From Vicinamibacteria bacterium (GTDB lineage: Bacteria; Acidobacteriota; Vicinamibacteria; Marinacidobacterales; Marinacidobacteraceae), in assembly GCA_964291235.2 (NCBI GenBank), contig OZ219816.1, positions 160,001 to 224,000 on the forward strand: a DNA stretch of 64,000 nucleotides, read 5' to 3'. Made by a program: the position numbers and the translations under genes. The notes under the pieces were generated by a model that was not told the origin of the DNA, searched no databases, and was given only the letters and a program-made list of their open reading frames with translations. Positions 14,776-35,984 of this stretch are shown one piece after another (positions within the stretch are counted from its first letter, which is position 1; the number at the start of each line of letters is the position of its first letter).

Positions 14776-17103
14776 TCAGAACCGGAACAGCCGGGTGAAC
14801 TTGACGATGAACGACTGGGTGTTCAGTTCCGGATACCCGGGGACCAGGGTGTCCCGGAGCGAGTTGTAAACCAGGTAGAGATCGCTTCCCGGTTCGTACT
14901 CCCAGCGGAACCGGACGTTCGTCGACAGGCTGCCCGCGGAGCTGTTGTACTGGAGGAACGCGGCCAGGAAACTGCGCGGCGAGACGGTGTAGTTGATCCG
15001 CGCGGCGAGCAGATTGGTGTCGTAGTCGCCCTCGGGCAGGGCAATCCAGTTGGCCGAGACGATCGGCTCGACGGTGAGGCGGGTCATGAGCTCGACGCGG
15101 CCGCGCCAGGCGAGTTCGCGGCGGGTCCCGGAGAAGAACCCGCCCTGCTGGTAGGCGAAGCCGCCCGACACCGGGCGCTGGGGGCCCGCCTGGTAGCTGA
15201 GCCGCACGTAGTCGAAGTCGTACTCGCCGGGCGTCACCCCCAGGTCGTCGCTCAGCGAAAACGACTCGCTCAGCACCTCACGGTTCCGGGTGGCGTTCAC
15301 GTTGAAGCTGTCCCCGTTCTCGAATTCCATGTCGTAGCGGAAGCCGAAGATGCGGGTCTCGAGTTCGCCCTCGTTATCCGTCGTGTAGTCCACGCTGCCG
15401 ATCCAGCCCAGCTTGCGGAGCCAGGAGATCGAATGCGGCCGCGGACTGAAGCGCGCTTCGGCGTAGTTCCGCTGGAAATCCCGGCGGCGCAGGAATCCGA
15501 TCCCGGGATCGAAGTCGTCCCCGACCACCAGGCGCTCGGCCTGTACCCCGTAACGGTCGCCGTTGTAGTCGAGCTGACCGAGGTAGCTCAGCCCGGTCTG
15601 GTCCTCGAGCTCGTTCTGGGTCCAGGCCGCGTAGCTGCGGATGTCCAGGTTCTCGAAAAAGCCGAACCGGGCGTCCATCCCGTAGGCGAAGTTCCGGCCC
15701 AGGCCGCCTTCGGTGTGCGAGCGATAGGTTCCCATCACGCCGACCGTGCTGCGGTTCAGGATGTCGCGCTTCAGCCGGAGGACGGAGAAATCCGTCTCCG
15801 GGGAGCCGGCGGCAGCACTCTCGCCGCTGCGCATCGCGATCGCGCCCACGTTGTATTCGCCGAGCCTTCCCGTCACCCGGGCTCCCCCAGTGATGGGCAC
15901 CGCCTGGCCGGCCTCGATGCCGATGCGGCGGCTGAAGAACAGCACCGGGGTGCTGCTCGGCGGCCCGAAGCTGCGTGTGGACCCGGGCGGCGCGCCGCGG
16001 CCCGTCGTGCCGAACTCGAAGATCCCCTGGCCTTCCAGGAAGAACTCGCGCTTTTCGGGGAAGAAGAGGCTGAACCGCGTCAGGTTGATCTGCTGGGCGT
16101 CGGCCTCGACCTGGGCGAAGTCGGTGTTGTAGGTGAGATCGGCGGTGAGCCCGCTGGTGATCCCCACCTTCGCGTCCAGCCCGAAGTCCCCGCCGAAGTC
16201 GCGGTCGAGCGACCCGGCCTCGATCCGGGCGCCCGCGGCGTCACCGATGAGATACGGCTTCACCTCGACCGTCCGGGAACTGGCAGGCGCTTCGAGTCCC
16301 ACCAGGGTGCCCGCCGAGCTGATCTTGGTGATCGCCCGCGGGCCGAGCGCGGCCGGCACCTGGGTCAGGTAGGACATCTCGTTCTTCCAGCGCACCACCC
16401 GGCGGAAGTTGATGCCCCAGACCTGCTGTCCCCCGGTTGCGTAGCGCAGGGTCTTGAACGGGATGCGCATCTCCATGGTCCAGCCGTTCTCGAAGCGCGC
16501 CGCCTTGGAGTCCCAGACCGCGGTCCAGTCGCGGTTCACGCCGCGCTCGTCCACGATTAGGCCGTCGAAGAAGCCGCCGATCGGATTCAGGTAGAAGAAG
16601 AAGGCGTTCCGGCGGTCATAGAACGTGTCCAGAATGACGGCGAGGTTCGCGTTGTTGAAGATGCCGAAGTGGTCCCGCCGCATTTCGGTGGCCACGATCC
16701 GGTCCGGTTCGGAGTCCCAGCACCGGCCGGCGATGTACACCGCATCGTCGTCGAAGAACACCCAGACCTCGGTGTCTTCGGTGGCTGGTTCCCCCTCGAG
16801 CGGGAGCGCCTGGATGAAGCCGCTCACTCCCGGAACGCGGTCGTAGATTCCGTCGTCGAGTCGGCCGTCGAGTTCGAAAGGTCCCTCGAGTCGGGTGGCG
16901 CGCATGGTGGCGCCGCCGACATCGTCCCGGCGGACCATCTCGGGGAGATCGGGCGGCGCCGGGCCGCGGACCACGAATTCCGGCTCCGGCGTCGCCCCCT
17001 GGCCGTCCTGGCGCTCCCCGAGTGCTCCCGTCTGCCCCAGGGAAGAGGCAGGCGCGATCAGGGCGGAGGCAACGAGAACGAAGCGGAACGCGTGGCGGGA
17101 CAA
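14776..17103 (-). CDS. DUF5916/CBM9-like probable outer-membrane protein, paralog A1
   Basis: Signal peptide; DGRLDD..Y, LDTFYDRRNAF, GWTMEMRIPFKTLRY, WGINFRR, NTDFAQVEAD, FFPEKREFFLEG; C-terminal VKFTRLFRF; TTG start. Confidence 0.82.
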   Translation of the reverse strand: MSRHAFRFVLVASALIAPASSLGQTGALGERQDGQGATPEPEFVVRGPAPPDLPEMVRRDDVGGATMRATRLEGPFELDGRLDDGIYDRVPGVSGFIQALPLEGEPATEDTEVWVFFDDDAVYIAGRCWDSEPDRIVATEMRRDHFGIFNNANLAVILDTFYDRRNAFFFYLNPIGGFFDGLIVDERGVNRDWTAVWDSKAARFENGWTMEMRIPFKTLRYATGGQQVWGINFRRVVRWKNEMSYLTQVPAALGPRAITKISSAGTLVGLEAPASSRTVEVKPYLIGDAAGARIEAGSLDRDFGGDFGLDAKVGITSGLTADLTYNTDFAQVEADAQQINLTRFSLFFPEKREFFLEGQGIFEFGTTGRGAPPGSTRSFGPPSSTPVLFFSRRIGIEAGQAVPITGGARVTGRLGEYNVGAIAMRSGESAAAGSPETDFSVLRLKRDILNRSTVGVMGTYRSHTEGGLGRNFAYGMDARFGFFENLDIRSYAAWTQNELEDQTGLSYLGQLDYNGDRYGVQAERLVVGDDFDPGIGFLRRRDFQRNYAEARFSPRPHSISWLRKLGWIGSVDYTTDNEGELETRIFGFRYDMEFENGDSFNVNATRNREVLSESFSLSDDLGVTPGEYDFDYVRLSYQAGPQRPVSGGFAYQQGGFFSGTRRELAWRGRVELMTRLTVEPIVSANWIALPEGDYDTNLLAARINYTVSPRSFLAAFLQYNSSAGSLSTNVRFRWEYEPGSDLYLVYNSLRDTLVPGYPELNTQSFIVKFTRLFRF

Positions 17104-17152
17104 GAGCGGGGACTCGGGCGGCGGAACTCTACGCCGGGCTGGCGTCCGGCGG

Positions 17153-19486
17153 TCAGAACCGGAAGAGCCGGGTGAACTTGACGATGAAGGACTGGGTGTT
17201 CAGTTCGGGGTATCCGGGCGCCAGGGTGTCCCGCAGCGAGTTGTAAACCACGTAGAGGTCGCTGCCCGGTTCGTATTCCCAACGGAAGCGGACGTTCGTG
17301 GAGAGGCTGTTCGCGGAGGTGTTGTACTGGAGGAACGCCGCGACAAAACTGCGGGGTGAGAGCGTGTAGTTGACCCGGGACGCGATCAGATTGGTGTCGT
17401 AGTCGCCGGTCGGCAGGTCGATCCAGTTCATCGAGACGGTGGGCTCGAGGGAGAAGCGGGTCGTCACCTCGACCCGTCCGCGCCATGCCGCCTCGCGGCG
17501 CATCCCCGAGAAGAAGCCCCCCTGCTGGAAGGCGAAGTTTCCCGAGATGGGACGCTGCGGCCCCGCCTGGTAGGCGACCCGGACGTGATCGAAGTCGTAC
17601 GGACCCACCCCCACGCCGATCCCGTCGTCCTCGTCCAGAAGGAACTCTTCGCTGAGCACCTCGTGGTTCCGGGCGGCGTCCACGTTGAGCCGGTCGCCGT
17701 TTTCGAGTTCGACCTCCGTCCGCAGTTGGAGAATTCGGGTCTCGAGGACAGCCTCGTTATCGGTGGTGTAGTCGACGCTGCCAGTCCAGCCGATCTGGCG
17801 CAGCCAGGAGATCGAGTGCGGCCGGGGGCTGAAGCGCGCTTCGGCGTAGTTGCGCTGGAAATCCCGGCGGCGCAGGAACCCGATGCCGGGATCGAAGCCG
17901 TCGCCAACCACGAGCCGTTCGGTCTTGAGCCCGTAGCGGTCGCCGTTGTACTCGAGCTGGCCCAGATAGCTCATCCCGGTCTCGTCCTCGAGTTCGTTCT
18001 GGGTCCAGGCGGCGTAGCTACGGATGTCGAGGTTCTCGAAGAGACCGAAGCGGGCGTCCATCCCGTAGGCGAAGTTCCGTCCCAACCCGCTGGCGCCGTG
18101 GGAGCGGTAGGTGCCCATGACGCCCACGGTGCTGCGGTTCAGGATGTCGCGCTTCAGCCGCAGGGCCGAGAAGTCGGTCTCCGGGGCGCCCGCGGCGTTG
18201 TTCCCTCCGGTCCGGATGGCAAGCGCCCCGACCCCGAAGTCGCCGAGCTTGCCGGTCACCCGCCCACCGCCGAGAATCGGCACCATCTGGCCGTCGGCGA
18301 TCCCGATCTGGCGGCTGAAGAAGAGCACCGGGGTGCTGCTCGGCGGGCCGAAGCTGCGCGTCGATCCCGCCGGAGGGGCGCGGCTCGAAGTGCCGAAGCT
18401 GAAGGTCCCCTGCCCTTCGAGGAAGAACTCGCGCTTCTCGGGAAAGAAGAGGCTGAACCGCGTCAGGTTGATCTGCTGGGCGTCCGCCTCCACCTGGGCG
18501 AAGTCGGTGTTCCAGGTGAGGTCGGCGATCAGGCCGCTGGTGATCCCGACCTTGGCATCCACCCCGAAGTCGCCGCCGTAGTCCCGCTCCAGCCCGCCGG
18601 CACCGGCGCGGATCCCGGCGGCGTCCCCGATGAGGTACGGCTTCACCTCGACGGTCCGGGAACTGGCAGGCGCCTCCAGGCCCACGAGCGTCCCCGCCGA
18701 GCTGATCTTGGTGATGGCGCGGGGTCCGAGGGCCGTAGGAACCCCGGTGAGGAAGGACAGCTCGTTCTTCCAGCGCACGATACGGCGGAAGTTGATCCCC
18801 CAGACCTGAGGGCCTCCGCTCGCGTAGCGCAGCGTCTTGAACGGGATCCGCATCTCCATGGTCCAGCCGTTTTCGAACCGAGCCGCCCGGGAGTCCCAGA
18901 CCGCGGTCCAGTCGCGGTTGGGGGGATTCTCATCCGCGATGAGGCCGTCGAAGAACCCGCCGATCGGGTTCATGTAGAAGAAGAAGGCGTTCCGGCGGTC
19001 GTAGAAGGTGTCCAGGATGACCGCGAGGTTCTCGTTGTTGAAGATGCCGAAGTTGTCCCGCCGCATCTCGGTCGCCACCATGCGGTGGGGCTGGCTGTCC
19101 CAGCACCTGCCGGCGATGTACACCGCTTCGTCGTCGTAGAAGATCCAGACGTCGGTCGGCTCGGTAGCCGGTTCGCCTTCGAGCGGCAGCGCCTGGATGA
19201 AACCGCCCACCCCGGGCACCCGTTCGTAGATCGCGTCGTCGAGGCGGCCGTCCAGCTCGAGCGGCTCGGTGAGGCGGGTGGCGCGCATGGTGGCGCCCCC
19301 GGCGTCGTCGCGCCGGACCATCTCGGGGAGATCGGGCGGTGCCGGGCCGCGGACCACGAATGCGGGCTCGGGGGCCTCGCCTTGGCCGTCCTGCCGATCG
19401 CCGGGTTCTCCCGTCTGCGCCCGCGGGGCGACCGGCCAAATCAGGGTGGAGGCGGCGAGAACGAAGCGGAAGGCGCGGCGGGACAA
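17153..19486 (-). CDS. DUF5916/CBM9-like protein, paralog A2
   Basis: Same motifs; colinear with A1 and A3; TTG start. Confidence 0.82.
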   Translation of the reverse strand: MSRRAFRFVLAASTLIWPVAPRAQTGEPGDRQDGQGEAPEPAFVVRGPAPPDLPEMVRRDDAGGATMRATRLTEPLELDGRLDDAIYERVPGVGGFIQALPLEGEPATEPTDVWIFYDDEAVYIAGRCWDSQPHRMVATEMRRDNFGIFNNENLAVILDTFYDRRNAFFFYMNPIGGFFDGLIADENPPNRDWTAVWDSRAARFENGWTMEMRIPFKTLRYASGGPQVWGINFRRIVRWKNELSFLTGVPTALGPRAITKISSAGTLVGLEAPASSRTVEVKPYLIGDAAGIRAGAGGLERDYGGDFGVDAKVGITSGLIADLTWNTDFAQVEADAQQINLTRFSLFFPEKREFFLEGQGTFSFGTSSRAPPAGSTRSFGPPSSTPVLFFSRQIGIADGQMVPILGGGRVTGKLGDFGVGALAIRTGGNNAAGAPETDFSALRLKRDILNRSTVGVMGTYRSHGASGLGRNFAYGMDARFGLFENLDIRSYAAWTQNELEDETGMSYLGQLEYNGDRYGLKTERLVVGDGFDPGIGFLRRRDFQRNYAEARFSPRPHSISWLRQIGWTGSVDYTTDNEAVLETRILQLRTEVELENGDRLNVDAARNHEVLSEEFLLDEDDGIGVGVGPYDFDHVRVAYQAGPQRPISGNFAFQQGGFFSGMRREAAWRGRVEVTTRFSLEPTVSMNWIDLPTGDYDTNLIASRVNYTLSPRSFVAAFLQYNTSANSLSTNVRFRWEYEPGSDLYVVYNSLRDTLAPGYPELNTQSFIVKFTRLFRF

Positions 19487-19589
19487 CAGCGGGAACTCGG
19501 GCGGCGGAACTCTACGCCGGGCTGCGGCGCCGCGATGCCGGGGTGAGGTCGGCCCGGTTTTCGCGGTGGGGGCTCCCGTGAGTGTGGGC

Positions 19590-19791
19590 TACCAAGGCTG
19601 CGAAGGGCCCCGCCGAGAGGGGAACCATCGTGGCGCTGGGGGGACCGTCCCGCCGCCCCGCTTCGCGGGGCTGTGCCGACCTGGAGGTCGGCGTTCCCGT
19701 GCCTGTGGCACCGTGGAGGTGGGGGGCGTTGTGCGTTTCGCGGCCCGGCGGGCCGCGATGCCGGCCAGAGGTCGGCGCTCCTGGCGCTCCT
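19590..19791. repeat. One copy of the ~120-bp REP unit plus a second REP subtype
   Basis: CGCCGAGAGGGGAACCA...GGGCTGTGCCGACCTGGAGGTCGGCGTTCCC matches the 7809 unit. It is followed by GTTTCGCGGCCCGGCGGGCCGCGATGCCGGCCAGAGGTCGGCGCTCC. Confidence 0.8.
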
Positions 19792-19812
19792 CGGGCTCCT
19801 TGCGTTCCCTGC

Positions 19813-22146
19813 CTAGAACCGGAACAGACGGGTGAACTTGACGATGAACGACTGGGTGTTCAGTTCGGGGTATCCGGGCGCCAGGGTGTCCCGCAGGGAG
19901 TTGTAAACCACGTAGAAGTCGCTGCCCGGCTGGTACTCCCAGCGGAAGCGCACATTCGTGGAGAGGCTGTTCGCGGCGGTGTTGTATTGCAAGAACCCCG
20001 CGAGGAAGCTGCGGGGCGAGAGCGTGTAGGTGATCCGGGACGCGATCAGGCTGGTGTCGTAGTCGCCGGTCGGCAGGTCGATCCAGTTCATCGAGACGCC
20101 GGGCTCGAGGGAGAAGCGCGTCGTCACCTCCACCCGGCCGCGCCACGCCGCCTCCCGGCGGGTCCCGGAGAAAAACCCGCCCTGCTGGAAGGCGAAGTTC
20201 CCGGAGATCGGCCGCTGCGGGCCGGCCTGGTAGCTGACCCGGAAGTGATCGAAGTCGTATGGACCCGCCCCCACGCCGATCCCCTCGTCCTCGTCTAGCA
20301 GGAACGCTTCGCTCAGCACCTCGTGGTTCCGGGCGGCGTTCAGGTTGAGCCGGTCCCCGTTCTCGAGTTCGACGTCGGTACGCAGGGAGAAGATCCGGGT
20401 CTCGAGGACGGATTCGTTGTCGGTGGTGTAGTCCACGCTGCCGGTCCAGCCGATCTTGCGCAGCCAGGAGATGGAGTGCGGCCGGGGGCTGAAGCGCGCC
20501 TCGGCGTAGTTCCGCTGGAAGTCCCGGCGGCGCAGGAACCCGATTCCCGGATCGAATCCGTCGCCGACCACGAGCCGTTCCGTCTTGAGCCCGTATCGGT
20601 CGCCGTTGTAGTCGAACTGGCCGAGATAGCTCATTCCGGTCTCGTCTTCGAGTTCGTTCTGCGTCCAGGCGGCGTAGGCCTGGATGTCGAGGTTCTCGAA
20701 GAGACCGAAGCGGGCGTCCATCCCGTAGGCGAAGTTCCGTCCCAGTCCGCTTTGGGTGTGAGAGCGATAGGTGCCCATGACGCCCACCGTGCTGCGGTTC
20801 AGGATGTCGCGCTTCAGCCGCAGGACCGAGAAGTCGGTCTCCGGAGCGCCCGCGGCGCTGTTCGCGCCGCTGCGGATCGCGAGTGCCCCGACGCCAAAGT
20901 CCCCGAGTTTCCCGGTCACCCGACCTCCGCCGAGGATCGGCACTACCTGGCCGCCGGCAATCCCGATCTGGCGGCTGAAGAAGAGCACCGGAGTGCTGCT
21001 CGGCTGGCCGAAGCTGCGCGTGGATCCGGACGGCGGCGCCCGCGAGGCGGTGCCGAAGGTGAAGATCCCCTGCCCTTCGAGGAAGAACTCCCGCTTTTCC
21101 GGGAAGAAGAGGCTGAAGCGGGTGAGGTTGATCTGCTGGGCGTCCGCCTCCACCTGGGCGAAGTCGGTGTTCCAGGTGAGATCGGCGGTGAGTCCGCTGG
21201 TGATCCCCACCTTCGCGTCCACTCCGAAGTCACTGCCGTAGTTCCGTTCCAGCCCGCCGCCGTCGGCTCGGATGCCGGCGCCGTCGCCGATCAGGTAGGG
21301 CTTGACCTCGACGGTGCGCGAGCTGGCCGGCGCCTCGACGCCCACCAGGGTGCCCGCCGAACTCACCTTGGTGATGGCGCGGGGCCCCATGGCGGCGGGA
21401 AGCCGGGTCAGATAGGAGTACTCGTTCTTCCAGCGCACGATGCGGCGAAAGTTGATCCCCCAGACCTGGGGACCGCCGCCGGCATAGCGCAGCGTCTTGA
21501 ACGGGATCGCCATCTCCATGGTCCAGCCGTTTTCGAACCGGGCTGCCCGGGAGTCCCAGACCGCCGTCCAGTCGCGGTTGATGTTCAACTCGTCCACGAT
21601 CAGGCCGTCGAAGAACCCGCCGAGCGGGTTCAGGTAGAAGAAGAAGGCGTTCCGGCGGTCGTAGAAGGTGTCGAGGATGACCGCGAGGTTCTCGTTGTTG
21701 TGGATGCCGAAGTGGTCGCGCCGCATTTCGGTGGCCAGCATCCGGTCGGGCTGGCTGTCCCAGCAGCGGCCGGCGACGTAGAGCGTCTCGTCGTCGTAGA
21801 AGACCCAGACCTCGGTCGCCTCGGTGGCGGGCTCGCCCTCGAGGGGCAGTCCCTGGATGAAACCGCCCACCCCGGGCACCCGGTCGTAGATGGCGTCGTC
21901 AAGACGGCCGTCTAGCTCGAACGGCTCGGTGAGGCGGGTGGCGCGCATGGTGGCGCCGCCGGCGTCGTCGCGCCGGACCATCTCGGGAAGGTCCGGAGGC
22001 GCGGGGCCGCGTACGACGGTCCCAGACGCCGAGGCTGAGCCTTGGCCGTCCTGGGGTTCGTCGCGCTGGGCGGACTGCGCCCACAGGGAGGCTGGAACGA
22101 TCAGGGCCGCGCCGGCGAGGACGAAGCGGGACGCCTGACGGGACAA
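19813..22146 (-). CDS. DUF5916/CBM9-like protein, paralog A3
   Basis: Same motifs; TTG start 7 nt after a TAGAGT -10-like hexamer. Confidence 0.82.
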   Translation of the reverse strand: MSRQASRFVLAGAALIVPASLWAQSAQRDEPQDGQGSASASGTVVRGPAPPDLPEMVRRDDAGGATMRATRLTEPFELDGRLDDAIYDRVPGVGGFIQGLPLEGEPATEATEVWVFYDDETLYVAGRCWDSQPDRMLATEMRRDHFGIHNNENLAVILDTFYDRRNAFFFYLNPLGGFFDGLIVDELNINRDWTAVWDSRAARFENGWTMEMAIPFKTLRYAGGGPQVWGINFRRIVRWKNEYSYLTRLPAAMGPRAITKVSSAGTLVGVEAPASSRTVEVKPYLIGDGAGIRADGGGLERNYGSDFGVDAKVGITSGLTADLTWNTDFAQVEADAQQINLTRFSLFFPEKREFFLEGQGIFTFGTASRAPPSGSTRSFGQPSSTPVLFFSRQIGIAGGQVVPILGGGRVTGKLGDFGVGALAIRSGANSAAGAPETDFSVLRLKRDILNRSTVGVMGTYRSHTQSGLGRNFAYGMDARFGLFENLDIQAYAAWTQNELEDETGMSYLGQFDYNGDRYGLKTERLVVGDGFDPGIGFLRRRDFQRNYAEARFSPRPHSISWLRKIGWTGSVDYTTDNESVLETRIFSLRTDVELENGDRLNLNAARNHEVLSEAFLLDEDEGIGVGAGPYDFDHFRVSYQAGPQRPISGNFAFQQGGFFSGTRREAAWRGRVEVTTRFSLEPGVSMNWIDLPTGDYDTSLIASRITYTLSPRSFLAGFLQYNTAANSLSTNVRFRWEYQPGSDFYVVYNSLRDTLAPGYPELNTQSFIVKFTRLFRF

Positions 22147-22180
22147 GGGAGGAACTCTAAGGACCGGGAGGCGGAGCCTG

Positions 22181-24517
22181 TCAGAACCGGAAAAGGCGGG
22201 TGAACTTGACGATGAAGGCCTGGGTGTTCAGTTCGGGGTACCCGGGCATCAAGGTGTCACGGAGTGAGTTGTACACGAGATAGAAGTCGCTGCCCGGCTG
22301 GTACTCCCAGCGAAACCGGACGTTCGTGGAGAGGCTGTTCGCGGCGCTGTTGTACTGCAGGAACGCGGCGAGAAAGCTGCGGGGAGACAGGTTGTAGTTG
22401 ATCCTCGAAGCGACCAGCCGGGTGTCGTAGTTGCCGTCCGGAAGGGCGATCCAGTTCAGGGAAATGATGGGCTCGACGATGAGGTGGGGAACGACCTCGA
22501 GCCGGCCGCGCCAGGCGAGCTCGCGCCGGGTCCCCGAGAAGAACCCGCCCTGCTGATACGAGAAGGTCCCCGAGATCGGCCGCTGGGGCCCGGCCCGGTA
22601 GCTGAGGCGGGCGTAGTCGAAGTCGTGGGGTCCGGTAGCCACTGCAAGGTCGCCGGCCAGACGGAATTCCTCGTGAAGCACCTCCCGGTTGCGCGCCGCC
22701 TGGAACTGGGCGCTGTCCCCGTTCTCCAACTCGACGTCGGAGCGGAGCGCGAAGATCCGGGTTTCCAGATTCCCGTTGGTGTCCGTGGTGTAGTCGAGAC
22801 TGCCGGTCCCACCGATCTTCCGCAGCCAGGAGATCGAGCGGGGCCGGGGGCTGAAGCGCGCCTCCGCGTAGTTGCGCCGGAAGTCCCGGCGGCGCAGGAA
22901 GCCGAGCCCGGGATCGAAGCCCTCGCCGACCACCAGCCGCTCGAACTGGAGTCCGTAACGGTCGGCCTGGTAGTCGAACTGGCCGCGGTAGCTCATGCCG
23001 GTCCGGTCCTCATATTCGTTCTTCGTCCAGGCCGCGTAGCTGCGAATGTCGAGGTTCTCGTAGAGCCCGAAGCGCGCGTCCATCCCGTAGGCGGTGTTGC
23101 TTCCCAGACCGTCTGCGGCGCCCGAGCGGTAGGTGCCCATCACCCCGACCGTGCTGCGGCCCAGGATGTCCCGCTTCAGCCGGAATACCGAAAAGTCGGT
23201 TTCGGGGGCGCCCGCGGCAAGGCTCTCGCCGCTACGGATCGCGAGCGCGCCGACGCCGAAGTCGCCGATCTTGCCCGTCACCCGGGCGCCGCCGCGGATC
23301 GGCGCCACCTGGTTTCCGGCGATGCCGATCCGGCGGCTGAAGAAGAGGAGCGGGACGCTGCTCGGCGCTCCGAAGCGCCGGCTCGAGGCGCGCGGGGTGC
23401 GCTCCGAGGTTCCGAAGGCGAAGAGCCCCTGCCCTTCGAGAAAGAACTCGCGCTTTTCGGGGAAGAAGAGGCTGAACCGGGTCAGGTTGATCTGCTGGGC
23501 ATCCGCCTCGACCTGGGCGAAGTCGGTGTTCCAGGTCAGGTCGGCGGTGAGCCCGCTGGTGATGCCGACCTTGGCGTCCACCCCGAAATCGCCCCCGAAG
23601 TCCCGGTCGAGGGCGCCGCTCTCGGCCTGGGCCGCGGCGGCGTCCCCCGTGAGGTACGGCTTCACCTCGATGGTCCGCGAACTGGGCGGCGCCTCGAGGC
23701 CGACCAGGGTCGCATAGGAACTCACCTTGGTGATCGACCAGATCCCGAGGGCGGCCGGGAGTTGGGTCAGGTAGGAGATTTCGTTCTTCCAGCGGACGAC
23801 CCGGCGGAAGTTGATGCCCCACACCTGTGGGCCCGCGGCGGGGTAGCGGAGGGTCTTGAACGGAAACCGCAGTTCGGTCGTCCAGCCGTTCTCGAACCAG
23901 GCGGTCCGGGAGTCCCACACCGCGGTCCAGTCGCGGTTGAAGTTCCGCTCGTCGGTGATGAGGCCGTCGAAGAACCCGCCCAGGGGGTTGAGGTAGAAGA
24001 TGAACGCGTTCCGGCGGTCGTAGAAGGTGTCGAAGGTGACGGCCAGGTGCTGGTTGAGCCAGATGCTCCCGTGGTCGCGCCGGAGTTCGGTGGCCACGAT
24101 CCGGTGGGGCTGGGTGTCCCAGGCGCGGCCGGCGATGTAGATCGCCTCGTCGTCGAAGAAGACCCAGACCTCGGTCTTTTCGGTGGCCGGCGCTCCTTCG
24201 AGCGGCTCGGTCTGGATGAAGTCGCTGATTCCGGGAACCCGCTCGTAGATGGCTTCATCGAGGCGGCCGTCGAAGTCGAGCGGCTCCTCCAGGCGGACGG
24301 CCCGAATGGTGGCGCCACCCTGGTCGTCGCGCCGGATCATCGCCGGGGGGTCCGGCGGCGCGGGACCGTGGATCACGGGAGCCGGCCCTTGAGCCCGAGT
24401 TGATGGCTCCTGCTGAGAAGCCCCGGCCTGCGGTGGCTTCCCGGGCGGCGACGGGACTGCGGTAGCCGGGACGACGAGCAGCCCGGCGGCCAGCGCGAGG
24501 GCGCTGGAACCGGCCAC
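22181..24517 (-). CDS. DUF5916/CBM9-like protein, paralog A4
   Basis: Same motifs; GTG start; signal peptide. Confidence 0.82.
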   Translation of the reverse strand: MAGSSALALAAGLLVVPATAVPSPPGKPPQAGASQQEPSTRAQGPAPVIHGPAPPDPPAMIRRDDQGGATIRAVRLEEPLDFDGRLDEAIYERVPGISDFIQTEPLEGAPATEKTEVWVFFDDEAIYIAGRAWDTQPHRIVATELRRDHGSIWLNQHLAVTFDTFYDRRNAFIFYLNPLGGFFDGLITDERNFNRDWTAVWDSRTAWFENGWTTELRFPFKTLRYPAAGPQVWGINFRRVVRWKNEISYLTQLPAALGIWSITKVSSYATLVGLEAPPSSRTIEVKPYLTGDAAAAQAESGALDRDFGGDFGVDAKVGITSGLTADLTWNTDFAQVEADAQQINLTRFSLFFPEKREFFLEGQGLFAFGTSERTPRASSRRFGAPSSVPLLFFSRRIGIAGNQVAPIRGGARVTGKIGDFGVGALAIRSGESLAAGAPETDFSVFRLKRDILGRSTVGVMGTYRSGAADGLGSNTAYGMDARFGLYENLDIRSYAAWTKNEYEDRTGMSYRGQFDYQADRYGLQFERLVVGEGFDPGLGFLRRRDFRRNYAEARFSPRPRSISWLRKIGGTGSLDYTTDTNGNLETRIFALRSDVELENGDSAQFQAARNREVLHEEFRLAGDLAVATGPHDFDYARLSYRAGPQRPISGTFSYQQGGFFSGTRRELAWRGRLEVVPHLIVEPIISLNWIALPDGNYDTRLVASRINYNLSPRSFLAAFLQYNSAANSLSTNVRFRWEYQPGSDFYLVYNSLRDTLMPGYPELNTQAFIVKFTRLFRF

Positions 24518-24546
24518 AGCCCGGGATCCTGGTCCGGACCCCCGGA

Positions 24547-26958
24547 TCAGAAACGGAACAGGCGGGTGAACTTGACGACCAGCGCCCGGTCGGTCAGCCC
24601 CGACAGCGCGTCGTCCCCGTCGCGGTTCGTGCTGAAGACGACGAACACGTCGCTGCCCGGCGAGTATTCCCAGCGGAAGCGCACGTTGGCCGACATCAGT
24701 TGGGCGGCCGAGTTGTACTGAACGAGCGCCCCGACGAAGCTCTGCGGGGAGACGGTGTAGGTGGCGCGGAGACGGGTCACCTGGGCCTGCACTTCGCCGC
24801 CCGGCACCTCGATCCAGTTGAGGCTGATGTTCGGCTCCATGGAAAAGCGCCGGTTCACCTCGGCGCGTCCCCAGTAGCTCACTTCCTGGCGGGTGCCCCC
24901 GAAGAAGTCCCCGAACTCGTAGCGGACATACCCGGAGACAGCGCGGTGTGTTCCCAACCAGAAGCGAATACCGCTACGGGCGAAGCGGTAGTTGCCAGCC
25001 GGAACCGCAACGTCGCTGGAGAGGTCGAAACCGTCGAGGAGATGTTCCTCCGTCATCGAGTGCGTCACCACCAGGCGGTCGCTGCTCTCGAAGATGGCGC
25101 GTCCCTCGAAGGTGTATTCCCGCGTCTCCATCTCCCCGTCCAGCCGGTCGTACTGATTCGCGTCGGCCTTGAACTCGAACTGGCGGATGGCCTCGATGCC
25201 GCGTGGCCGCGGCGCCAGCGTGACGGACCCTCCGTTCTTGGTGAAGTCCCGCCGGCGGACGAAACCCATCCCCGGGTTGAAGTCGTCGCCGAGGTAGAGA
25301 CGCTCGGCCGAGACATCGAACAGGTCGGTGTCGTAGCGAAACTGTCCCATGTAGCTGGCCGCCTGATGTCCGGCCTCGACGCCGGGCTCGCTGGTGGCCA
25401 TGTAGAAGGTGTTGATCCGGATGTTCTCGCTCGGCGCGAAGTTGCCGTCCACCCCATAGAGGGAGTTGGACCCCGTCCCGTCGGAGTTGATGTTGCGGTG
25501 CGTCGCAATGACCCCGATGTTGGACCGCGAGAAGAGGTCCCGCTTCATCCGGAAGGCGCTGAAATTGGTGCTCTCCACGTCGAGGCCCGGCACGCCCTCC
25601 GTCTGGATGTTCATGAGTCCCATCTGGTAGGCGCCGGCCCGGCCGTGGAGCCGGGCGCCGCCCAGGATCGGCACCGCGCTGCCGCCGGAGATCCCGATGG
25701 ACCGGCTGAAGAACGGGATCGGAGCGTCGGACGGGCCCTGGCCGCCGAAGGCGCGGGTCTGCCGGCCACCGAAATCGAACACCCCCTGTCCCTCGAGGAA
25801 GAACTCGCGCTTTTCCGGGAAGAAGAGGCTGAAGCGACTCAGGTTGACCTGGGTCTCGTCGTCTTCCACCTGCGCGAAGTCGGTGTTCCAGGTGACGTCG
25901 GCGGTGAGTCCGTCCGTCACCCCGAACTTGAAATCGGCGCCGACGTCGCCGGACCACTCGTTCAGGGTGTCGTTCAGCGGAGCGTGTTGCTGGGAACCGA
26001 TCGCGTAGGGCTTGAGCTCCATCCGCCGCGATCCCGCGGGAGCTTCGAGCCCCACGAGCGTCGCCGCGTTGGAGAGACGGATCAGCGCTTCGCGGTTGTA
26101 GGCCTGCGGGGTGGCGGTGAAGAACACCTTCTCGTTCCGGTGCTTGATGTTGCGCTGGAAATTGATGCCCCAGAGCTGGGACCCTCCCGCCGCGTAGCGG
26201 AGCGACCGGAAGGGGATCCGGATTTCCGTGGTCCAACCGCCCTCGACGATCTCGCTCTTGGCCCACCAGACGGTGTTCCAGTCGCTGTTGGTGTTCCGTT
26301 CGTCGGTCACCTGGGCGTCGTAGAGGGCGCCGAGCGGGTTGGTGTGGAACAAGAAGCCGTTCCGGCGGTCGTAGAAGGTGTCGAGGACGATCTGGAAGCT
26401 GTCGTTCCAGCCGATGCTCATGTGGTCGCGGCGCATTTCGCCGGCCATCAACTCCTCCGCGTGTTCCTCTTCCATCTCCGCCGCGATGTAGAGGTTCTCC
26501 GCGTCGTAGAGCACCCAGACGCGGGTGGACTCCGACGCCGGAGCGCCCTCGTTCGGCTCCTGCTGGAGGAAGCCGTCCGCGGCCGGCACCTGGTCGTAGA
26601 CCGGATCGTCGAGTACCCCGTCCACGGTGAGTGGCTCGGCGAGCCGGAAGGCGCGGAGCGTTACCCGGCCGTCGGCGTCGCGGCTGACCGCTTCTCCGGC
26701 CTTCGGCGCGGGCGGACCGAGGATGCGGCTCGCCATCGCCGAAGGGACCGGCCCCTGTTGGTCTTCCGCCAGCCGGCCGCCGCCGCGGAGCGGGATCGCC
26801 AGATCATCCGAATCGTCCTGGAGCTGCCGATCCGCGGGCGGGGGAACGGGTCCCTCAGGGCCGGCGGGCACGGGGTTGCCGGCGAACGAAACGCCGGCTA
26901 GCAACACCGAGAGTCCCGCCACGGCAACGCCTCGCGAAAGAAATTGAAATGACGGCAA
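24547..26958 (-). CDS. DUF5916/CBM9-like protein, paralog B1
   Basis: Subfamily B motifs (DGVLDDPVY, AQVTDERNTNSDW, AQVEDDETQVNL). Start placed at TTG 26958 because it shares the GGGTACCGCYTC-TTGCCG context with B2. Confidence 0.8.
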   Translation of the reverse strand: MPSFQFLSRGVAVAGLSVLLAGVSFAGNPVPAGPEGPVPPPADRQLQDDSDDLAIPLRGGGRLAEDQQGPVPSAMASRILGPPAPKAGEAVSRDADGRVTLRAFRLAEPLTVDGVLDDPVYDQVPAADGFLQQEPNEGAPASESTRVWVLYDAENLYIAAEMEEEHAEELMAGEMRRDHMSIGWNDSFQIVLDTFYDRRNGFLFHTNPLGALYDAQVTDERNTNSDWNTVWWAKSEIVEGGWTTEIRIPFRSLRYAAGGSQLWGINFQRNIKHRNEKVFFTATPQAYNREALIRLSNAATLVGLEAPAGSRRMELKPYAIGSQQHAPLNDTLNEWSGDVGADFKFGVTDGLTADVTWNTDFAQVEDDETQVNLSRFSLFFPEKREFFLEGQGVFDFGGRQTRAFGGQGPSDAPIPFFSRSIGISGGSAVPILGGARLHGRAGAYQMGLMNIQTEGVPGLDVESTNFSAFRMKRDLFSRSNIGVIATHRNINSDGTGSNSLYGVDGNFAPSENIRINTFYMATSEPGVEAGHQAASYMGQFRYDTDLFDVSAERLYLGDDFNPGMGFVRRRDFTKNGGSVTLAPRPRGIEAIRQFEFKADANQYDRLDGEMETREYTFEGRAIFESSDRLVVTHSMTEEHLLDGFDLSSDVAVPAGNYRFARSGIRFWLGTHRAVSGYVRYEFGDFFGGTRQEVSYWGRAEVNRRFSMEPNISLNWIEVPGGEVQAQVTRLRATYTVSPQSFVGALVQYNSAAQLMSANVRFRWEYSPGSDVFVVFSTNRDGDDALSGLTDRALVVKFTRLFRF

Positions 26959-27067
26959 GAGGCGGTACCCGGGAACGCTGTTCCCCGTGCAGGAAGCGAA
27001 GACCACCCGCCATTTTAGCAGCCGGACCCGGTGGCCCTCCACCGCGAAACGGCGGCCGGAGGGCGTG

Positions 27068-29467
27068 TCAGAACCGGAAGAGGCGGGTGAATTTGACGAC
27101 CAGCGCGCGGTCGCTGAGACCGGAGAGGCCGTCGTTCCCGTCCCGGTTGGTGCTGAACACCACGAACAGGTCGCTGCCGGGGGAGTACTCCCAGCGGAAG
27201 CGCACGTTCGCCGAATAGAGCTCTGCCGCCGAGTTGTACTGGACGAGCGCCCCCAGGAAGCTCCGTGGTGAGACGGTGTAGGTGACGCGGATGCGGCTCA
27301 CCTGCGCCCGCACCTCGCCGCCGGGAACTTCAATCCAGTTCAGGCTGATGTTGGGCTCGAGGGAGAAGCGCTGGTTCACCTCGGCGCGTCCCATGTAGCT
27401 CACTTCCTGCCGGGTGCCGCCGAAGAAGTTGCCCCACTCGTAACGCAGGAATCCCGAAACCCGCCGGTGGGAGCCCATCCGGATCCGGACCCCCGTTCGC
27501 GAAAACCGGTAGTTGCCGGCGGGCACCGCGACGTCGCTGGAGAGATCGAACCCCTCGAGGAGGCGCTCATCGGTGATGGTGTGGTCGAACATGAGGCGAT
27601 CGCTGCTCTCGAGGATCGCGCGGGCGTCGAAGCGGTATTCACGCGTCTCCAGCTCGCCGTCGGGCCGGTCGTACTGGTTCGCCTCCGCCTTGAACTCGAG
27701 CTGACGGATCGCCTGGATCCCGCGCGGGCGCGGCGCGAGCTGGAACGAACCGCCGTTCTTCGTGAAGTCCCTGCGGCGGACGAAGCCCATTCCCGGGTTG
27801 AAGTCCCCGCCGAGATAGAGCCTTTCGGCGGTGACGTCGATCAGGTCGGTGTCGTAGCGGAACTGGCCCATGTAGCTCGCGGCGTTATGTCCCGTCTCCA
27901 CTTCCGGCTCGCTGGTCGCCATGTAGAAGGTGTTGAAGCGGATGTTGTCCGTCGGGGCGAAGTTCCCGTCCACGCCGTAGAGGGAGTTGGATCCGGAACC
28001 GTCGGCGCTGATGTTCCGGTGGGTGGCGATGACGCCGATGTTGGACCGTGCGAAGAGGTCGCGTTTCATCCGGAAGGCGCTGAAGTTCGTGCTCTCCACG
28101 TCGAGTCCGCCGACATCGCCGGTCTGAATGTTCATCAGGCCCATCTGGTAGGCGCCGGCCCGGCCGTGGAGGCGGGCGCCGCCCAGAATCGGTACCGCGC
28201 TGCCCCCGGAAATGCCGATGGACCGGCTGAAGAACGGGATGGGGACGTCGGTCGGCCCGCCGAAGAAACGGGTTTCGCGGCCGCCGAAGTCGAACACCCC
28301 CTGCCCCTCGAGGAAGAACTCGCGCTTTTCCGGATAGAACAGGCTGAAACGGCTCAGGTTTACCTGGGTTTCGTCGTCTTCGACCTGCGCGAAGTCGGTG
28401 TTCCAGGTGACGTCGGCAGTGAGCCCGTCGGTGACGCCGAACTTGAAGTCGGCACCGACATCCCCGGACCACTCGTTGTTGATGTCGCTCAGGGGAACGT
28501 GGCTCTGGGAGCCGATCGCGTACGGCTTCAGCTCCATCCGCCGCGAGCCGGCCGGCGCCTCGAGGCCCACGAGCGTCGCCGCGTTCGAGAGCCGCAACAG
28601 CGCGAACCGGTCGTACGCCTGGGGCGTCGGGGTGAAGAACACCTGTTCGTTGTTGTGCTTGATGCGGCGGCGGAAGTTGATTCCCCAGAGCTGGGGCCCA
28701 CCGGCGGCGTAGCGCAGCGACCGGAACGGGATCCGGATCTCGACGGTGTAGCGGTTCTCGAGACGGTGGGTGTCCACCCACCAGACGGTGTTCCAGTCGC
28801 TGTTGGTGTTCCGTTCGTCCGTCACCTGCGCGTCGAAGAGCGCGCCCAGCGCGTTCGTATGGAACAAGAAGCCGTTGCGCCGGTCGTAGAAGGTGTCGAT
28901 GACGATCGAGAAGCTGTCGCCCCAGTCGATATTCCGCTGGTCGCGCCGCATCTCGTTGGCCATCAGCAGCTCCGGGTGGTCTTCTTCCAGATCGGCGGCG
29001 ATGTAGATGCTGTCGGCGTCGTAGAACACCCAGACCCGGGTGGACTCCGACGCCGGGTCGCCTTCGATGGGCTCCTGTTGGGTGAATCCCTCCGCCGCCG
29101 GCACCTGGTCGTACACCGGGTCGTCGAGCACCCCGTCCACGGTGAGGGGCTCGGAGAGCCGGAAGGCCCGGAGCGTCACCCCGCCGTCGGCGCCCCGGCT
29201 CACGGCTTCGTCGGCGGCGGGCGCCGGCGGTCCGAGGATGCGGTCGGCCATCGCCGAGTCGAGCCCCTGCTGGCCCTCGGCGAGCCGGCCCGAGCCACGC
29301 GAGGACAGCCCGAGGTCGTCCTGCCCGTCCTGCACGCGGCGGTCCGCGGGCGGAACCGGTCCGTCCTGGGCAAAGGCCGCGTTACCGGCGACCAACGCAG
29401 GACCGGTCAGCAGGAACCCCAGCGCGGCTGCGACGGCGCCTCGCAACGCTTTGGGAGGAATCGGCAA
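27068..29467 (-). CDS. DUF5916/CBM9-like protein, paralog B2
   Basis: Colinear with B1; TTG start; C-terminal VKFTRLFRF. Confidence 0.82.
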   Translation of the reverse strand: MPIPPKALRGAVAAALGFLLTGPALVAGNAAFAQDGPVPPADRRVQDGQDDLGLSSRGSGRLAEGQQGLDSAMADRILGPPAPAADEAVSRGADGGVTLRAFRLSEPLTVDGVLDDPVYDQVPAAEGFTQQEPIEGDPASESTRVWVFYDADSIYIAADLEEDHPELLMANEMRRDQRNIDWGDSFSIVIDTFYDRRNGFLFHTNALGALFDAQVTDERNTNSDWNTVWWVDTHRLENRYTVEIRIPFRSLRYAAGGPQLWGINFRRRIKHNNEQVFFTPTPQAYDRFALLRLSNAATLVGLEAPAGSRRMELKPYAIGSQSHVPLSDINNEWSGDVGADFKFGVTDGLTADVTWNTDFAQVEDDETQVNLSRFSLFYPEKREFFLEGQGVFDFGGRETRFFGGPTDVPIPFFSRSIGISGGSAVPILGGARLHGRAGAYQMGLMNIQTGDVGGLDVESTNFSAFRMKRDLFARSNIGVIATHRNISADGSGSNSLYGVDGNFAPTDNIRFNTFYMATSEPEVETGHNAASYMGQFRYDTDLIDVTAERLYLGGDFNPGMGFVRRRDFTKNGGSFQLAPRPRGIQAIRQLEFKAEANQYDRPDGELETREYRFDARAILESSDRLMFDHTITDERLLEGFDLSSDVAVPAGNYRFSRTGVRIRMGSHRRVSGFLRYEWGNFFGGTRQEVSYMGRAEVNQRFSLEPNISLNWIEVPGGEVRAQVSRIRVTYTVSPRSFLGALVQYNSAAELYSANVRFRWEYSPGSDLFVVFSTNRDGNDGLSGLSDRALVVKFTRLFRF

Positions 29468-29599
29468 GAAGCGGTACCCCGGGGCGCGTCCCCACTCTCG
29501 GAGGCGCAGGGTGACAGTCAGTTTACGGAAAAGCCGGTCCCGGTCCCAACGCGTTCCGCCGGCCTGCCGGAGCGGCCGAAACCGGGGTTCGGAACCCCG

Positions 29600-32022
29600 T
29601 CAGAACCGGAACAGCCGGGTGAACTTGACGACGAGCGCCCGGTCGCTGAGACCGGAGAGACCGTCGTCGCCGTCCCGGTTCGAGCTCAAGACCACGAACA
29701 GGTCGCTGCCGGGGGAGTACTCCCAGCGGTAGCGGACGTTGGCCGAAAACAGTTGGGCGGCCGAGTTGTACTGGACCAGCGCCCCCAGGAAGCTGCGGGG
29801 CGAGACGGTATAGGTGGCGCGGAGGCGGCTCACCTGCGCCCGGACGTCGCCCGCGGGCATCGCGATCCAGTTCAGGCTGACGTTCGGCTCGAAGGAGAAG
29901 CGCTGGTTGATCTCGGCGCGTCCCCAGTAGCCCAGCTCCTGCCGGGTTCCCCCGAAGAAGTCCCCGAACTCGTAGCGGACCATTCCCGAGACCTTGCGGT
30001 GGGAGCCCATCCGGACCCGGACCCCGGCCCGGGCGAATCGGTAGCTCCCGGCGGGCACTGCGACCTCGTCCGAGAGGTCGAAACCCTCGAGGAGGTGCTC
30101 CTCGGTGACGGTGTAGCCGAGCATGAGGCGGTCGCTGCTCTCGAACAGGGTGTTGGCCTCGAACTCGTACTCCCGGGTCTCCAGCTCGCCGCCGGGACGC
30201 TGGTAGTTGTTCACCCGTGCCTGGAACTCCAACTGCCGGACCGCCTCGATGCCGCGAGGGCGCGGCGAGAACTGGAAGGAGCCGCTGTTCTTGGTGAAGT
30301 TCCGCCGGCGCACGAAACCCATCCCCGGGTTGAAGTCCTCGCCGAGATAGAGCCGCCCGGCGGTCACGTCGATCAGGTCGGTGTCGTAGCGGAACTGGCC
30401 CATGTAGCTGGCCGCCTGGTGTCCCGTCTCGACCCCGGGCTCGCTCGTCGCCATGTAGTAGGTGGTGATCCGGAGGTGATCCGTGGGGTTGAAGTTCCCG
30501 TCCATGCCGTAGAGCGAGTTGGACCCCGTGCCGTCGGCGCCCACGTTCCGGTGGGTCGCGATGACGCCGATGTTGGACCGGGAGAAGAGGTCGCGCTTCA
30601 CCCGGAAGGCGCTGAAATTCGTGCCCTCCACGTCCACACCCGGCGCGGTGCCGGTCTGGATGTTCATGAGCCCCATCTGGTAGGCGCCGGCCCGGCCGTG
30701 GAGCCGGGCGCCCCCGAGAATGGGCACCGCGCTGCCCCGGAGATCCCGATGGAGCGGCTGAAGAAGGGGATGGGAGTGTCGGAGGAACCCCCGCCCCCGA
30801 AGGCCCGCGTCTGCCGGCCTCCAAAGTCGAACACCCCCTGCCCTTCAAGGAAGAACTCGCGCTTTTCGGGGTAGAAGAGGCTGAAACGGCTCAGGTTGAC
30901 CTGGGTCTCGTCGTCCTCCACCTGCGCGAAGTCGGTGTTCCAGGTGACGTCGGCGGTGAGCCCGTCGGTGACCCCGAACTTGAAGTCGGCGCCGACGTCG
31001 CCGGACCACTCGTCGTTGATGTCCCTCAGGGGAGCGTCCGTCTGCGACCCGATGGCGTAGGGCTTCAGCTCCATCCGCCGCGAGCCGGCGGGGGCCTCGA
31101 GCCCGACGAGCGTCGCCGCGTTCGAGAGCCGGTTCAGCCCGTTCATGTTGAACGCCTGGGGCGTCGGAGTGAGAAAGGCCCGCTCGTTCGTGTGCTTGAT
31201 GAGGCGGCGAAAGTTGATGCCCCAGAGCTGGGGTCCGCCCGCGGCGTAGCGGAGCGAGCGGAACGGGATCCGCATCTCCATGGTCCAGCCGTCCTCGACG
31301 CGCTCGGTCCGGACCCACCACACGGTGTTCCAGTCGGAGTTCGTGTTCCGCTCGTCGGAGACCTGGGCGTCATAGAGCGCCCCCACCGCGTTGGTGTGGA
31401 ACAAGAATCCGTTCCGCCGGTCGTAGAAGGTGTCGAGGATGACCGAGAAGCTGTCGCCCCAGCCGATGTTCCGCTGGTCGCGGCGCATCTCGTTCGCCCG
31501 CAGGAGTTCCGGGTGGTGCTCTTCCAACTTGGCGGCGATGTAGAGGCTGTCCGCGTCGTAGAGCACCCAGACAAGAGTGGATTCCGAGACGGGAGCACCC
31601 TCGTTGGGTTCCTGTTGTACGAAACCCTCGGCTGCCGGCACCTGGTCGTACGCCGGGTCGTCCAGCACGCCGTCCAGAGTGAGCGGCTCCGCGAGCCGGA
31701 ACGCGCGGATCGTTACCCGGCCGTCGGCGTCACGACTGACCGCCTCGTTCGCGGCCGGCGCGGGCGGACCCAGGATGCGCTCGGCAATCGACGAACTGAG
31801 GTCCTGCTGGCGCTCGGCGACGCGGCCCGAGCCGCGCGCGGGAAATCCGAGGTCGCCCGGTTTGTCCTGGGCGTCCTGAACCCGGCGATCCTCCGGAGGT
31901 GAAATGACCGGCCCATCCTCGGCGGTGGCCGCACCGGCGGCCAACAGCGCTCCCGCCAGGAGGAGCAGGGCCTGGCCGACAGTCCTCCGGGCCCCCTCGC
32001 GAATCAAGGAATGGTCAGGCAA
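29600..32022 (-). pseudogene. DUF5916/CBM9-like protein, paralog B3, split by a single-base deletion (or a sequencing error)
   Basis: The N-half (within ORF 30664..32676) and C-half (29600..30727) join at SIGISG|GSAVPI. The minus strand reads TCC GGGG CAGC (C4 at 30735-30738), while B2 has TCC GGG GGC AGC. Start position is approximate. Confidence 0.8.
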
Positions 32023-32394
32023 TACAACCAGTCTCCAGCATCTCCGAACCAACGGATAAACGGACAGTGTACCGAGAATGTTCCGTTCTTTTTCGGGGGC
32101 GAAGCGGGGCCGGAATTCTGGTCCGCGCGGTGGCGTGACAATCACCAGAACTATTCCGAAAAAGCCAGCGTCGTCACCGGTCGGGCCCGGCTCCGAGTGG
32201 CGGCGGGAAACCAGGCCAGCTCGCGCCCCGAGCCGTCGCGCAACCGTGCGGAGCGTGCGTGAACACCGCGCAGGGAGGCCCCCCTGGCCTGCACCCCGAT
32301 CGGCTGGCAGCGTGCGTGCGGCACGATCCCGCCAGCCTCGTCGCCTACCCATTCTGCCTGGCGAGGAGCCATTCTTTACATACGTTGAGAAACC

Positions 32395-33075: not shown

Positions 33076-33310
33076 CCGGCCCGTGACGCGCTAGCTAGGC
33101 GCGCCGGTGCGACCCCCGGCAGGGCAAGGCGTGCCCTGCGGCGTCGTTTGGTCCCAAGACACCGAGACAGGCGACGGTATTGGCGGCCGAAGCGATGGGG
33201 GTCGGAGTACCCGAGGTCACCTCGCTCATCGCCCGGTTCGGCCGGGAGGCGGGCACACCGTGGCGGAAGGACCACAAGCTGGCGGCCGCGGCGGCCCGGT
33301 TCCCTACGAC

Positions 33311-33372
33311 TTTTCCACAAAGCGGCGCGAAAACGCCTCCCCGTGGGAATTCTGCGACGCGATTCTCGTCTA
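33311..33372 (+). promoter_or_regulatory. DnaA-box-like TTTTCCACA plus ECF-type GGGAAT-N16-CGTCTA
   Basis: TTTTCCACA at 33311-33319; GGGAAT at 33345-33350; CGTCTA at 33367-33372. The same pair of motifs precedes 43852 and 44848. Confidence 0.45.
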
Positions 33373-33409
33373 TGTCCTCGAGGGGCCTGGCCCCCGAAAG
33401 GAGATCCGA

Positions 33410-35850: not shown

Positions 35851-35984
35851 CGGCACCGCCACGCGGGGGGAATGCGTGAAAGGGGGGTGTCCCCCCTTTC
35901 ACAAGACGAAAGCGCAAAATCGGAACTCGCCGAAGCGCGCCCCAGGCGCGCGAGGGAGTTTCGATTTCCGGCACGAAGTGCCGG

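Follow-up and report, generated by a model that had tools for sequence, protein, structure and literature searches.

Very large beta-barrels of the outer membrane are described for LptD, with 26 strands, and for the chaperone-usher pores PapC and FimD, with 24; in all of these a domain, either separate or inserted, shuts the lumen, and in LptD an N-terminal beta-jellyroll hands lipopolysaccharide to the 26-strand barrel. The TonB-dependent transporters, including the SusC-like ones, also join an N-terminal globular domain to a large barrel, here of 22 strands, and genomes often hold many specialised paralogs of them. The CBM9 modules of Thermotoga maritima Xyn10A (CBM9-2, 1i82) and of Caldicellulosiruptor (7nwn) are fused to glycoside hydrolases, and according to the structure paper of 2001 the reducing-end sugar is reportedly held by a clamp of two Trp residues and by polar residues. 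We analysed a stretch of 64,000 nucleotides from a Vicinamibacteria bacterium (assembly GCA_964291235.2, contig OZ219816.1, positions 160,001 to 224,000), called the window below, in which seven DUF5916 proteins, with a CBM9-like N-terminal domain and a predicted barrel, are encoded head to tail. On the basis of sequence comparison and of structure models, we hold it about an even chance (probability near 0.5) that they form an old, vertically inherited tandem array of specialised DUF5916 outer-membrane channels or receptors.

The seven paralogs are located on the minus strand from 14776 to ~32022 (Table 1), each as a long open reading frame (ORF) with a strong third-position G+C bias, in a window of ~69% G+C. 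The order of transcription is B3, B2, B1, A4, A3, A2, A1. The ORFs and the identity matrix confirmed the tandem array of seven in two subfamilies, A1-A4 and B1-B3, given by an earlier reading of the DNA (the initial annotation), with B3 however in two pieces. At the protein level the identity is 80-88% among A1-A3, 73% between A4 and A1-A3, 77-80% among B1-B3 and 44-48% between A and B. The genes are 25-130 nucleotides apart, save for 326 nucleotides between A3 and A2. The true start of B1 is probably internal, because nothing in B2 or B3 corresponds to its upstream part. The common ending VKFTRLFRF was also found as annotated, in 7/7 C-termini, and it is near-identical in 110 of the 112 relatives taken from the loci described below.

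The assignment of these proteins to DUF5916 with a CBM9-like N-terminal domain, likewise made in the initial annotation, agreed with both Pfam and Foldseek. The Pfam profile DUF5916 (PF19313) matched all seven proteins with 49-63 bits against a gathering score of 22.6, in B3 through the N-terminal part, and its alignment in the window proteins spans only positions ~4-86 of 572. The profile CBM9_1 (PF06452; gathering score 23.4 bits) was found above its cut-off in B1 (28.9 bits), B2 (25.7) and B3 (24.6). A1 matched 21097 representative clusters (50% identity) at E<=1e-3 and 4033 at E<=1e-30; the best 120 of 8000 scored matches all carried PF19313 and covered up to 100% of A1, and a feature search of the protein atlas returned DUF5916 clusters only. 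The domain order, with DUF5916 usually after CBM9_1, the length (~730-800 amino acids) and the C-terminal consensus VKxTxLFxF are common to the array and to thousands of relatives. NCBIfam had no model for the array proteins, a PDB sequence search with A1 gave nothing at E<=1, and a full-text literature search returned no paper on DUF5916 or PF19313. Papers pairing CBM9 with an outer membrane protein do not appear to concern the DUF5916 family, as judged by their titles, abstracts or CBM9 passages (PMC10992098, PMC3534657). DUF5916 is a large, very common bacterial family that is entirely uncharacterised.

One scan of species-representative genomes gave 53 loci, of which at most 22 kb each was fetched. 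All 53 belong to Acidobacteriota, most of the records being titled Vicinamibacteria or Candidatus Marinacidobacterium, and at least four copies were present in 14 of them within the fetched sequence. A tree of 119 protein rows, built with FastTree and uncertain in its deep branches, resolved one orthogroup per window copy, with 13 rows for A1, 16 for A2, 13 for A3, 15 for A4, 14 for B1, 6 for B2 and 5 for B3. The orthologs are 88-93% identical and stand in the same order in L002, L014, L017, L019 and other loci, and they are closer to each other than A1 is to A2. In genomes at 72-82% identity, the locus consists of an A+B pair (L022, L025, L030-L034 and L037) or of B2-B1-A, and in genomes at ~50% identity of one or two copies, apparently at the same chromosomal site (neighbours c1, c2 and c4 are common to L035-L037). 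Compared with the seven copies of the window, more distant DUF5916 relatives have 1-3 at the same locus. Pairwise Nei-Gojobori estimates over whole genes gave a synonymous divergence (dS) of 0.41-0.69 within subfamilies and a ratio of nonsynonymous to synonymous divergence (dN/dS) of 0.18-0.30. Given this dS and the presence of orthologs of each copy across species, the serial duplication must have taken place long before the present species split. The origin by serial duplication that had been proposed was thus upheld by a tree with seven clean orthogroups. As the duplications are old (dS 0.4-0.7) and predate speciation in the clade, the array is not a recently diversifying repertoire; of the diversified repertoire put forward initially, paralog-specific differences that are conserved among orthologs stood. 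The array is real, conserved in related marine Acidobacteriota and vertically inherited.

The content and order of the array vary among relatives. In the copy-number comparison, A3 was missing in L008, L010 and L017, and A1 in L019. Swaps of order were seen for A2/A3 and B2/B3 (L003, L007, L009 and L012 versus L002 and L014; L010, L016 and L019 versus the window), and the A3 orthogroup is heterogeneous at the three residues after a DE motif (WDV, LNI, LNV, RNV). Together these observations suggest rearrangement, independent duplication or local gene conversion. In one relative (L012 2899-4725 and L028 3305-10001), foreign genes split the array between A4 and A2; the intervening ~6.7 kb include a gene for a YhcG-type PDDEXK nuclease.

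AlphaFold2 models of A1 and B2 were built with 74-75 diverse relatives and reached predicted local distance difference test scores (pLDDT) of 89.9 and 88.3 and predicted template modelling scores (pTM) of 0.87 and 0.86, respectively. A large predicted beta-barrel, which the initial annotation had expected, was present in both. The two models exhibited the same order of elements, beginning with an N-terminal helix and a short disordered linker; a beta-sandwich and a short helix follow, and then four strands, an insert and 21 further strands. In the A1 model the sandwich comprises residues 57-245 (~190 residues). The insert after the fourth strand, of 78 residues (A1 326-403), is almost strand-free, strongly conserved and rich in acidic and aromatic residues: NTDFAQVE...FFPEKREFFLEGQG. 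The secondary-structure program DSSP assigned 25 long antiparallel strands at pLDDT above 90 in the A1 and B2 models. The N-termini resemble signal peptides: their hydrophobic stretches, which have AxA-like ends as judged by eye, were modelled as helix. A beta-signal is a C-terminal aromatic residue with alternating hydrophobics; such an ending was present in 7/7 proteins, in line with the beta-signal-like Phe noted earlier, and in the A1 model the last long strand stops 5 residues short of this terminal Phe.

Foldseek searches against the PDB gave for the sandwich CBM9 1i82_A as top match (E 4.5e-8, target template modelling (TM) score 0.73), with 7nwn and 7nwo at target TM 0.69-0.72. For the barrel, the matches were TonB-dependent receptors (best BauA, FemA and BtuB), LptD, ushers and Occ porins, with a probability of 1.0 but a TM of only ~0.3; the barrel is therefore generically outer-membrane-like, without a close solved relative. 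The array proteins differ from the TonB-dependent transporters in the number of predicted strands (~24-25 versus 22), in this low TM, and in sequence: neither the profile Plug (PF07715) nor TonB_dep_Rec matched one of the seven proteins at E<=0.01, no TonB box was recognised, and no SusD-like or TonB/ExbBD gene was a neighbour.

The C-terminal strand of known barrel proteins ends in the periplasm. With this strand taken as periplasmic in the models, the alternating connections would place on the extracellular side A1 294-298, 427-436 and 612-625, which are long variable connections, 528-542, a conserved loop of 15 residues, and the 78-residue insert. Longer DUF5916 relatives (P0127, P0134, P0088 and P0178) have extra domains N-terminal to the CBM9-like domain: TolB_N in P0134 and FlgO/DUF3280 in P0127, with TolB_N and FlgO above cut-off, and in the others a right-handed beta-helix or a weak CarboxypepD_reg match, which is below cut-off and in one relative is positioned like the extensions of SusC. 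The TolB_N and FlgO families occur in periplasm-facing proteins, and their place before the sandwich would argue that the N-terminus starts in the periplasm. The whole-chain pTM of 0.86-0.87 suggests rigid packing of the sandwich, either upon the barrel or inside it. A periplasmic N-terminus and an insert on the extracellular side would be compatible if the sandwich entered the lumen from below and joined the first strand close to the outer rim.

At the sequence level, the profile of the N-terminal domain matched 1i82 marginally (E 0.02), which is yet consistent with the fold match. The RRD...LDTF framework of the array proteins aligned to KD...FID of 1i82, and the loop after RRD lies opposite the loop bearing Trp72 of chain 1i82_A, which we take to be the sugar-stacking Trp of CBM9. 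At this position A1 has F149, A2 F, A3 H, A4 W, and the B copies G or D followed by W. Opposite E78, Q97 and R99 of 1i82, presumably the polar sugar ligands, the array proteins have A/Q/S, F and D, respectively; the full CBM9 arrangement of two clamping Trp and polar ligands was not found, the second Trp being outside the alignment. W229 is nearly invariant in the family (67/74) and is not aligned to 1i82. Position 152 (A1 at window ~16648-16650) is an Asp family-wide (66/74). B1-B3 retain this Asp, whereas A1 has A there (10/13 orthologs), both A2 and A3 have E, and A4 has Q. A heme-binding, DOMON-like N-terminal domain was also considered and dropped, as no His, Met or Cys was among the invariant columns.

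We then compared the variation among the paralogs with their structural regions. The mean pairwise difference of the mature proteins is 0.20 in A and 0.18 in B and is spread along the whole length. By region (A / B), it is 0.32 / 0.23 in the inferred extracellular loops, 0.20 / 0.20 in the CBM9-like domain, 0.18 / 0.17 in the barrel strands, 0.11 / 0.16 in the periplasmic turns and 0.17 / 0.06 in the insert 326-403. Three short segments had been described as hypervariable putative binding loops, and their sequences had been cited correctly. Each of the three is a real local maximum, though in one subfamily only. In A, the nine residues after RRD rank in the top 4.7% of 9-residue segments (top 13% in B), and no other triplet varies as much as that after DE (top 0.1%), which is invariant in B. 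GPRAIT is in the top 1% in B and ordinary in A (37%). Two of the segments coincide with the indel-prone family positions 147 and 254-256, gapped in 42-48 of 74 relatives. The term hypervariable did not hold, as the predicted surface loops of the barrel vary more than the CBM9-like domain and no 30-codon segment has a ratio of nonsynonymous to synonymous differences per site (pN/pS) that reaches 1, the maxima being 0.74 in A and 0.65 in B. Positive selection or hypervariation was rejected, whole-gene and 30-codon Nei-Gojobori ratios all being <1. Gene conversion homogenising the core A1 301-360 was rejected as well, since pS ~0.3 with pN ~0 in this core points to purifying selection.

Within orthogroups, the variability (A / B) is 0.105 / 0.153 in the extracellular loops and 0.042 / 0.087 in the CBM9-like domain, and the faster change of the former is the ordinary behaviour of exposed outer-membrane loops. 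Differences fixed between paralogs have another distribution. When a fixed difference was defined as a site at least 90% conserved in every A orthogroup and differing between groups, 50 of 739 sites qualified; in B there were 14 fixed-difference sites. The CBM9-like domain, connector and insert together contained 30 in 286 sites versus 19 in 428 for wall, loops and turns (odds ratio 2.5, Fisher p=0.002), and the RRD loop 4 in 9 versus 13 in 185 for the rest of the CBM9-like domain (p=0.004), both p-values being optimistic because related sequences were counted as independent and the RRD loop was chosen on the window's own sequences. Along the CBM9-like domain the fixed sites were not significantly clustered (permutation p=0.25). 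The triplet after DE is RGV/RSV in 13/13 A1 rows, NPP in 15/16 A2 rows, RNF in 15/15 A4 rows and RNT in 25/25 B rows. These data give a moderate signal of specialisation by paralog, located in the CBM9-like head and the conserved insert, under purifying selection.

The same data bear on the possibility that the copies are redundant or serve gene dosage, supplying much of one abundant outer-membrane protein, all with the same ligand, their differences reflecting neutral drift under relaxed constraint and surface-loop variation under, for instance, phage or grazer pressure. Such an explanation would account for variation across the whole protein that peaks in extracellular loops also variable among orthologs, for the lack of any segment with pN/pS >=1, and for a copy number that differs among related genomes (the absence of A3 or A1), with one window copy broken. 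It fits poorly with the maintenance of each copy as a separate orthogroup across many species at dN/dS 0.18-0.30, with the absence of homogenisation by gene conversion (minimum pS rarely <0.1), and with the fixed paralog-specific residues, which orthologs retain and which are concentrated outside the exposed loops of the barrel. We regard it as possible, if rather unlikely.

For specialised channels or receptors, the course of events would be as follows. An ancestral A/B duplication would have been followed by further duplications to four A and three B copies, which would then have specialised. The changes would sit chiefly in the connector, the lumen-side insert and the CBM9-like domain, where the RRD loop, homologous to the ligand-stacking loop of CBM9, would stand out. 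Packed on or in the barrel, the sandwich would serve as its cap or plug, and the proteins would function as TonB-independent channels or receptors, each copy handling a different ligand, possibly a glycan. Our best guess for the individual protein is accordingly worded: a ligand-specific channel or receptor, possibly for glycans. More broadly, DUF5916 might be an unrecognised, widespread class of TonB-independent outer-membrane gates, with a CBM9-derived ligand-sensing plug in or on a ~24-strand barrel and an acidic and aromatic insert in the lumen; this generalisation we consider speculative and, on present evidence, unlikely. If it were true, the array would be a specificity series, one gate with seven heads, from which the ligand code of the family could be read. 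Seven diverged copies with their own orthologs offer a ready comparative series for ligand-determining residues and for assay constructs. Otherwise the locus is an ordinary one: outer-membrane paralogs often occur in arrays, and there is no indication here of an unusual mechanism of diversification.

Several observations weigh against specialised channels or receptors. CBM9_1 is below the Pfam cut-off in A1 (19.2 bits) and A2 (16.9 bits) and is not listed in A3 and A4, and the marginal E value of the match to 1i82 counts on the same side. The array proteins do not retain the polar sugar ligands of CBM9, and the family has no conserved aromatic residue at position 149 (R11 F9 V6 T6 E6 D5 G5 of 74). 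A strict specificity screen, which asked for at least three different residues and for at least 85% conservation in each orthogroup, left no more than 5 sites in A and 1 in B, and the p-values above are, as stated, optimistic. In the models, many predicted strands have a weak alternation of hydrophobic and polar faces, and the number of 25 DSSP strands is odd, which probably leaves at least one strand out of the wall, unless the barrel has an unusual topology. No partner gene is conserved beside the array, the conserved neighbours being unrelated housekeeping-type genes, and the literature searched held no functional datum on any DUF5916 member.

The outline of an N-terminal sandwich and a very large barrel resembles LptD, which was among the Foldseek matches of the barrel together with the ushers, and raises the question of an export or anchoring function: the barrel might be a pore that secretes or assembles a surface glycan, or might tether it to the envelope, and the CBM9-like domain would hold the polymer. 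The carbohydrate-binding-like fold and the fusion of TolB_N or FlgO in some relatives would suit such a function. The OstA/LptD Pfam profiles, however, had no match in the seven proteins, and beside the low TM no sequence-family match to LptD or ushers was obtained; no LptE, chaperone or pilin gene was found nearby, and among the genes conserved beside the array there is no glycosyltransferase, Wzx/Wzy, ABC exporter or Lpt gene. Seven specialised exporters in one array would also be unusual, in our judgement. Export or anchoring appears to us quite improbable.

As assembled, B3 is not one open frame: compared with all homologs in 25 locus alignments and with the six other window paralogs, it is one base short in a G run, TCCGG-GGCAGC, at ~30730-30740 (within 30664-30848). 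The two halves each still resemble conserved coding sequence, and therefore the break is either very recent (a pseudogene) or a homopolymer sequencing error. Such a single-base frameshift could also be taken as a sign that collapsed or mixed strains were assembled as tandem copies, but the chance of this is negligible, as the protein difference between copies is 12-55% and the dS 0.4-0.9, far above strain variation, and the same multi-copy array, with an ortholog for each copy, recurs in independent assemblies, several of them on records titled as chromosomes (L009, L012, L014, L015 and L019).

Table 1. Positions in the window of the array genes and of their neighbours
Feature	Position	Strand	Evidence
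A1, 775 aa, last array gene	14776..17103	-	ORF; Pfam DUF5916 55 bits; CBM9_1 19.2 bits (below cut-off); AlphaFold2 model
A2, 777 aa, DUF5916 paralog	17153..19486	-	ORF; Pfam
A3, 777 aa, DUF5916 paralog; 326-nt gap before A2	19813..22146	-	ORF; Pfam
A4, 778 aa, most diverged A copy (73% to A1-A3)	22181..24517	-	ORF; Pfam; identity matrix
B1, up to 831 aa	24547..27042	-	ORF; Pfam DUF5916; CBM9_1 28.9 bits (above cut-off)
B2, 799 aa	27068..29467	-	ORF; Pfam; AlphaFold2 model, A1-like architecture
B3 C-terminal part, 375 aa, ends VKFTRLFRF	29600..30727	-	other frame than N-terminal part
B3 N-terminal part, first array gene: start like a signal peptide, CBM9-like domain, first strands	30664..32022	-	ORF; Pfam
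Intergenic region between B3 and divergent DoxX-like gene, ~350 nt, presumed promoter region of the array	32040..32394		sequence
Divergent, weakly DoxX-like gene	32395-33075	+	DoxX 18.3 bits, below cut-off
DUF1592/1588/1585/1595/1587 (PSCyt) protein, weak cytochrome c match	12100-14619	-	Pfam
DUF1552 (HXXSHH, twin-arginine (TAT) signal) protein	10649-12103	-	Pfam
Ankyrin-repeat protein, 672 aa	8634-10652	-	Pfam

In the presumed promoter region 32040..32394, neither a sigma-70-like site nor an Rfam match was detected, and promoter and terminator scans gave signals no more frequent than in shuffled sequences. At gathering scores, Rfam returned only a tRNA at 36069-36140 (minus strand), with no riboswitch or other RNA upstream of the array. 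The space between A3 and A2 (19487-19812), the sole long gap in the array, has a short repeat of 9 nucleotides at 19772-19808, and an internal promoter may lie in this gap.

Downstream of A1, the DUF1592, DUF1552 and ankyrin-repeat genes were rejected as operon partners of the array, since the trio was not at this place in any related locus examined. Instead, A1 is followed there by an SDF symporter, a PD40-amidohydrolase, a protein with a beta-lactamase fold and small unknown genes. The trio (8634-14619), which separates A1 from the conserved neighbours, looks like an insertion particular to the source genome.

Two repeats were seen on the other side of the array. A tandem repeat at 35362-35852, with a unit of 84 nucleotides in 5.1 copies (72% matches), overlaps a 34-nucleotide repeat (2.6 copies, 92%) and is ~200 nucleotides from the tRNA gene. 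The ORF 33107-33799 (plus strand), for which only weak coiled-coil Pfam matches were obtained (DUF7310 31.6 bits, below cut-off), contains at 33597-33696 a repeat of 21 nucleotides (7 codons) in 3.6 copies, corresponding to the heptads of a coiled-coil protein.

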